DNA of 64,000 nucleotides from Escherichia phage CL1: sequence record OK040806, one strand, 5' to 3'. Under the pieces are notes generated by a model. The model searched no databases. It was not told where the DNA came from and saw nothing but the letters and a program-made list of their open reading frames with translations. This document shows positions 63,204 to 64,000 of this stretch, one piece after another. Numbering within the stretch: the first letter of the stretch is position 1; every line of letters starts with the position of its first letter. Position numbers and translations under genes: made by a program.

Positions 63204-64000
63204 TGTTATGGGATTCTAATATGCAAATCAAATATAGTGGCAAAGATGGCATCTATTTCCACTTAAGAGATAATGTAGATGCCTTCTTAACCTTATCAGC
63301 AACTGAGAATATGGAATTTGACAGCCCTATGCAGGTGACTACACAGAATATGCAATCAGGGCAAACTGTCACAGATAATGTGCAAAGAGCACCCAGAACA
63401 ATCACTATTAGCGGTGTCGTTGTAGTTGGCTATGAAGGGAGCTTACTGCTGACCCGCCAGGGCCAGCTGGTGGAAAACTTTATTGATACCCTGGAAAGCT
63501 GGCGCGATCAGAAACAGATTATTAGCGTGATTTGCAAAGATGGCATTAAAATTGATGATAGCATTATTACCAGCTTTAAAGCGAGCAAAGATGTGGGCAT
63601 TAGCAACGGCCTGCGCATTCAGCTGACCTTTCAGGAAATTAACTTTAAAGCGGTGGTGGGGCAGACTGATATCTCGGCTGCAACTGGAAAAGCCGCGACT
63701 ACGAATGATGGTGGTGCAACTTCCAAGAAAAATACAGGGAATACAACGACGAGTCTAGGCAACGGTAAACTAAATTGTCAGTTATTATTTGACCTAGACG
63801 CTAATGGTGTAAGGGAACTTACCAGTGCTGAAGATAATGCTCTTGCAAAATGTTCAATGTCTGCAAAGACAAGAAAAGGTGTCACTACATTCAGTGAAGA
63901 AGCTGAGAGAAATGCTGGAGCAGCATTAAACAGAACTGCTGGAGATGGAAAAGCATTACAAAAGCATTCAGTGAATCCGAATAAAAAGGGGACTTATTAA
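63203..64000 (+). CDS. tail protein (distal tail/baseplate-proximal) containing a codon-uniform internal block
   Basis: 265 aa; follows tape measure; stop TAA at window end; codons 63446-63658 use a single codon per amino acid. Confidence 0.5.

Follow-up and report, generated by a model that had tools for sequence, protein, structure and literature searches.

The window analysed here, that is, the whole stretch of 64,000 nucleotides from Escherichia phage CL1 (sequence record OK040806), ends with the gene of a Dit-like (distal tail/baseplate) protein, and an internal block of this gene is written in a codon usage that is foreign to the phage (Table 1). The gene product matches the Pfam family Dit_like (PF21821) over aa 32-149 (73.2 bits against a cut-off of 24.2, E = 2.8e-20), and exact-sequence look-up identified it as UCJ01346.1 of phage CL1 and UCJ01363.1 of Escherichia phage C600M2. 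A TMP_3 tape-measure gene (60975-63203) is located directly upstream of the Dit-like gene, the same order being found in relatives, in which the Dit-like gene is followed by the Pam3_gp18 plug gene, a baseplate gene, and the sheath initiator gene.

Table 1. Coordinates of the Dit-like gene, the recoded block, its junctions, and a by-product of the recoding (positions in the window).
Feature	Position	Strand	Remarks
Dit-like (distal tail/baseplate) protein gene, 265 aa	63203-64000	+	Pfam match, position, sequence identity
Recoded block	63446-63658	+	71 codons, aa 82-152 of the Dit-like protein, 213 bases
Left junction	63443-63448	+	Native TTA, then first recoded codon CTG (native TTA), on a codon boundary
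Right junction	63653-63661	+	Last changed base 63655 (GTT -> GTG)
Chi site GCTGGTGG	63466-63473	+	From CAG CTG GTG GAA; by-product of recoding, absent from the native version

The last three bases of the window (63998-64000) are the TAA stop codon of the Dit-like gene. Judging from the accession numbering, the CL1 record appears to end with this protein, UCJ01346.1. In C600M2 the ATG of the next gene shares the final A of this stop codon, so a linear record cut at the window end splits the next start codon. The CL1 genome is 342 bp shorter than that of C600M2; the same figure, 342 bp, is both the length of the next gene, which encodes a Pam3_gp18-like plug, and the distance between the end of the block and that of the record.

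All 71 codons of the block are the top codon of E. coli K-12, and each of the 16 amino-acid types present is encoded by a single codon (L=CTG, S=AGC, A=GCG, R=CGC, T=ACC, I=ATT, G=GGC, Q=CAG, K=AAA, E=GAA, N=AAC, D=GAT, V=GTG, F=TTT, C=TGC, and W=TGG). The run is flanked by codons outside this table, TTA at 63443 and GGG at 63659, and the second-longest run of table codons in all six frames of the 64-kb window comprises 13 codons. Under the codon usage of the phage itself, taken from 42 long open reading frames (ORFs) of the window (13,225 codons), 27.6 table codons would be expected in the block, and the probability of 71 out of 71 is ~10^-38. The GC content at third codon positions (GC3) is 0.58 in the block, whereas the native version of the block and the remainder of the ORF both have 0.31. 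A preliminary description, made from the letters of the window, had reported a block at 63446-63658 with one codon per amino acid, taken from the canonical most-frequent-codon table of E. coli, amid mixed usage in the flanking codons and the other genes. Its coordinates, peptide, and codon table were all reproduced, and the comparison of GC3 and codon usage that it had proposed as a check gave the contrast described above.

The identity of the table was examined with a sample of E. coli K-12 MG1655 genes from four 50-kb regions (145 long ORFs, 57,042 codons), in which the table codon was the most frequent one for all 18 degenerate amino acids, in agreement with the preliminary description. In a smaller sample of 42 E. 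coli genes, which included highly expressed ones, ATC, CGT, and CAC were preferred; thus, the table of the block is a genome-wide frequency table and not a high-expression preference. The sampled E. coli genes themselves use mixed codons for every amino acid.

Among 257 records of Felixounavirus (Felix O1-like phages), the best match of the region was C600M2 (OK040807.1), and the window proved to be the C600M2 genome in a rotated form, positions 1-49719 corresponding to 38443-88159 of that record and positions 49720-64000 to 1-14280. Over the 64 kb, the two sequences are distinguished by nine single-base homopolymer-length indels and 53 substitutions. All 53 substitutions fall within 63446-63655 and all are synonymous, with no non-synonymous change among them and no substitution at all in the other 63.8 kb. 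Within the block, 41 codons (53 nucleotides) are changed and 30 of the 71 codons are kept. The native block starts with TTATTAACTCGTCAAGG... and the recoded block with CTGCTGACCCGCCAGGG... The block contains no Ns and shows no change of length, and the 342 bases that separate it from the end of the record are native.

The peptide encoded by the block is 100% identical to the native protein of C600M2, so that a test for domain acquisition found the amino-acid sequence no different from that of close relatives, and the unchanged 265-aa protein is present in at least 106 blocks of a public contig collection. The recoded block starts inside the Dit_like match and ends three residues past it; domain borders were therefore not followed. 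The suggestion in the preliminary description that the segment may be an engineered or foreign domain has to be abandoned for these reasons: the peptide is the native one, and the whole protein is widespread in natural contigs.

The natural diversity of this gene was represented by C600M2 and ten contigs encoding the identical 265-aa protein, which together give eleven DNA versions. Their blocks contain 30-32 table codons out of 71 and are 96-100% identical to one another, against 75-76% to the window; over the remainder of the ORF, their identity to the window is 96-100%. The protein is thus conserved while the DNA of the block is not, as an alignment proposed in the preliminary description was meant to reveal. 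The same DNA in related natural phages, which that description had held to speak against its reading, was looked for and was absent: the best identity of the block among 252 Felixounavirus records was 80.6%, the closest records being 94-98% identical over a wider 3-kb region.

Searches beyond these relatives were equally negative. Exact recoded stretches of 60 and 51 bases had no match in the IMG/VR viral contigs or the GTDB genome contigs. A degenerate junction pattern, which fits either version of the sequence, retrieved only relatives with native sequence (94-96%) in viral and metagenome contigs. With the block as query, Megablast gave no hit in 5,426 complete E. coli genomes or in 72,556 plasmids, and no donor was found by a search in distant mode of 50,697 phage records, in which only the native homologous stretch appeared, at an identity of at most 80.6%.

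The borders of the block and the direction of the changes also bear on its origin. On the left side, the last native-specific base (63445) adjoins the first recoded base (63446), and this switch falls between codons. A crossover would thus find no bases in common, and for this reason recombination with a copy recoded throughout was rejected. On the right side, the final codon of the block (GTG, 63656-63658) is equal in both versions and is followed at once by the native GGG. Among the replacements are four of ATC by ATT, three of GAC by GAT, two of TTC by TTT, and two of CGT by CGC. Translational selection was likewise rejected, since the changes lead toward ATT, GAT, TTT, and CGC and away from the codons of highly expressed genes. 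Four serine codons were converted from TCN to AGC, which takes two to three base changes each, so that no path by single synonymous steps exists. The 30 unchanged codons are exactly those that already matched the table, indicating that the rule was to apply the table and not to diverge maximally. Besides the Chi site listed in Table 1, the recoding adds one Dam, two Dcm, two PvuII, and one FspI site.

A read-derived sequence of this lineage is available in the Logan contigs of run SRR15840093, which show no substitutions relative to C600M2, nor relative to the window outside the block. The contig spanning the block (SRR15840093_35) has no differences from C600M2 and 53 from the window, all of them in the block; it was found by way of the truncated product 63251-64000, assuming a 30-base overlap with the upstream contig. 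This run probably belongs to the CL1/C600M2 pair. Its contigs side with the C600M2 record at four of five homopolymer sites and with CL1 at one, so the read contig may come from the run of C600M2 and does not constitute proof for CL1. We therefore regard it as strong evidence for the native sequence of the lineage, not as proof for the reads of CL1 itself. The Logan contigs of two unrelated runs, SRR15840093 and ERR11029117, both start at window position 63250, and the upstream contig of SRR15840093 ends at 63279; the 30-mer 63250-63279 is single-copy in the genome on either strand.

The Ion Torrent platform is prone to homopolymer-length errors. According to the announcement paper, C600M2 and CL1 (OK040806) were isolated from one wastewater plant, both were sequenced on Ion Torrent, and their genomes are 99.92% identical, the CL1 assembly being based on 37x coverage and on reads recruited with the guidance of a reference. 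An identity of 99.92% corresponds to ~70 differences per 87.8 kb, and the homopolymer indels alone would give ~99.985%. The published value lies near the sum of 53 substitutions, nine indels, and a few further differences, which hints that the deposited CL1 record may hold the block. The 24 kb outside the window, where there is also a length difference of 342 bp between the two genomes, could account for the 99.92% equally well.

The nine indels relative to C600M2 (window positions 4765, 21417, 26283, 33061, 38847, 40825, 42467, 44072, and 60690) are single-base length changes in runs of A, T, or G, and four of them lie within coding regions. At 4765, the 111-aa product of the window is the widespread natural form (67 collection blocks), and the error there therefore probably lies in the C600M2 record. 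The products of the window at 40825 and 60690, by contrast, occur only in CL1. Exact-sequence look-ups with products that only the homopolymer variants of the window encode pointed to CL1: besides a fused 213-aa chaperone, described below, they returned proteins of 145 aa (UCJ01325.1, CL1_107) and 119 aa (UCJ01323.1, CL1_105). The window is therefore the final 64 kb of the CL1 record, and in OK040806.1 (87,817 bp) the block would accordingly fall at about 87,263-87,475.

The T run at ~60684-60690 (in 60334-60975) has seven Ts in the window and six in C600M2 and five other relatives (GGAAG-TTTTTT-CGAAG). With six Ts, there are two separate ORFs, one for a tail assembly chaperone (PF21822) of 132 aa and one of 79 aa in the -1 frame, and the site reads AGT TTT TTC, which is the canonical -1 slippery heptamer T_TTT_TTC. 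With seven Ts, as in the window, there is one 213-aa ORF equal to the predicted frameshift product, the "tape measure chaperone" UCJ01344.1 of CL1. The seventh T at ~60690 is probably an Ion Torrent homopolymer error, and the site itself, as judged from its sequence, would be that of a predicted G/GT-type programmed frameshift. The records annotate the frameshift pair as "head closure protein" and "hypothetical protein".

Elsewhere in the window, direct repeats of ~70-110 bp with 91-96% identity lie at ~27400-31840 among small hypothetical genes (C600M2 genes 93-105), and they probably represent repeated promoters or terminators in an array of early genes. The corresponding C600M2 annotation places a cluster of 26 tRNA genes, interspersed with a few small ORFs, at ~44140-49280. 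The G+C content is 38.96% for the window and 38.98% for C600M2. The announcement paper lists 41.32% for CL1, which cannot be right, because CL1 is 99.92% identical to C600M2.

The change in the Dit-like gene is artificial, purely synonymous, written from a single table, and confined to one stretch. Judging from the fixed codon table, the synonymous differences, and the absence of a natural carrier, we consider the block to be the product of a deterministic, table-driven reverse translation, with the edit most likely made at the level of the sequence file, and we give this reading a probability of about 85%. A person or a program would have taken the native residues 82-152 of the phage's own Dit-like protein, written each residue back with the one codon that E. 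coli K-12 uses most often for it, in the manner of back-translation tools, and set the recoded 213 bases in frame in place of the native ones. The preliminary description had already proposed a reverse-translated segment spliced in frame, and this part of it is borne out by the 53 synonymous differences in the block, the lack of substitutions elsewhere, and the lack of a natural carrier. Its other proposal, a patched assembly gap, survives only in the form of a manual patch, since the block was copied from no reference nucleotide sequence.

The site of the edit was most likely the sequence file and not the DNA of the phage: CL1 is described as a plain wastewater isolate, the sole synthetic DNA reported is that of a distant lysin, there is no other mark of design, and the patch has no evident purpose. 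In that case, the CL1 record as deposited may contain a repair made by hand, or the sequence may have been altered later, for example with a test or control insert. That the public record OK040806.1 itself holds a hand-made back-translated patch is a possibility that we entertain tentatively, with the odds leaning somewhat against it.

An actual piece of synthetic DNA, present in CL1 or in the DNA that was sequenced, is an unlikely source. It may have been a watermark or PCR tag, a recoded donor that escapes CRISPR counter-selection, or a laboratory recombinant with a synthetic construct. A table-driven, protein-neutral, in-frame design fits such a physical origin as well as an edit in a file; the same laboratory did order synthetic phage DNA, if only for a lysin gene; and the published 99.92% leaves room for ~50-60 real differences between CL1 and C600M2. 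Against this, the papers report CL1 as a wastewater isolate and mention no engineering, and that lysin gene, the sole synthetic gene reported and one made for expression, lies ~24 kb from the block. The 64 kb contain no scar, marker, amino-acid change, or further edit, no purpose is evident for replacing 71 codons midway through a domain, and the read-derived contig of the lineage is native. In commercial gene design, a single codon for each amino acid is rarely used. The narrower claim, that the DNA of phage CL1 itself carries the block, seems to us very improbable. If the DNA were physical after all, a reported wastewater isolate would carry a chemically designed segment back-translated for E. 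coli, and an engineered phage or synthetic construct would have entered an environmental or laboratory phage lineage.

An automatic assembly or polishing artefact, in which software filled a gap or corrected the sequence from a reference genome, is highly improbable, even though CL1 was built from 37x Ion Torrent data with reference-guided recruitment and the Dit-like gene is apparently the last in the linear record. The block matches no reference nucleotide sequence (80.6% at best), it has no Ns and no length change, and native sequence fills the 342 bases that follow it. We know of no assembler or polisher that works through protein back-translation. The least credible of all, and in effect refuted, is a natural origin, whether by horizontal acquisition from, or recombination with, a homologue of E. 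coli-like codon usage (in the host, a prophage, or a phage), or by translational selection. Felixounavirus genomes are indeed mosaic and their host is E. coli, but a donor was missing from the E. coli genomes, plasmids, phage records, and viral, metagenome, and genome contigs searched, and the sampled E. coli genes themselves mix codons for every amino acid. Nor would natural processes be expected to leave 53 synonymous and no non-synonymous changes in 213 bases beside no substitution in the other 63.8 kb, with a junction set on a codon boundary without shared homology, many changes directed away from high-expression codons, and TCN to AGC conversions beyond the reach of single synonymous steps.

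Because the protein is unchanged, nothing biological is gained or lost by the recoding. With a back-translated edit as the preferred reading, the block is a flag of data integrity only; the protein and the phage are ordinary, and no biological novelty is involved. Nevertheless, such a stretch would distort analyses of codon usage, recombination, dN/dS, and sequence identity, and if the block sits in the deposited CL1 record, this record needs correction. A single-codon run, when compared with a sister genome of nearly the same sequence, reveals man-made sequence sensitively and in a way that is easy to verify.

Among known systems, the mosaic modules of Felixounavirus tails show the same local drop of identity, which in our case is 75-80% in the block against 94-98% around it in the closest records, but such mosaics alter amino acids and have donors elsewhere, and the block does neither. 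Synonymous tags and watermarks, such as PCR tags and donors for CRISPR counter-selection, are also in-frame, protein-neutral stretches whose DNA can be distinguished from the wild type. Such tags tend to be short and are built to diverge as far as possible or to give specific primers, while the block keeps 30 of 71 native codons and comes with no other sign or documentation of engineering. Reverse translation with the "most likely codon" is offered by web tools or obtained from a best-codon dictionary in a script. Back-translation of this kind for E. coli is the closest likeness, with the same fixed codon per amino acid, the same K-12 table, and an unchanged protein. Its output is normally a whole designed gene, whereas the block consists of 71 internal codons set between untouched native flanks.
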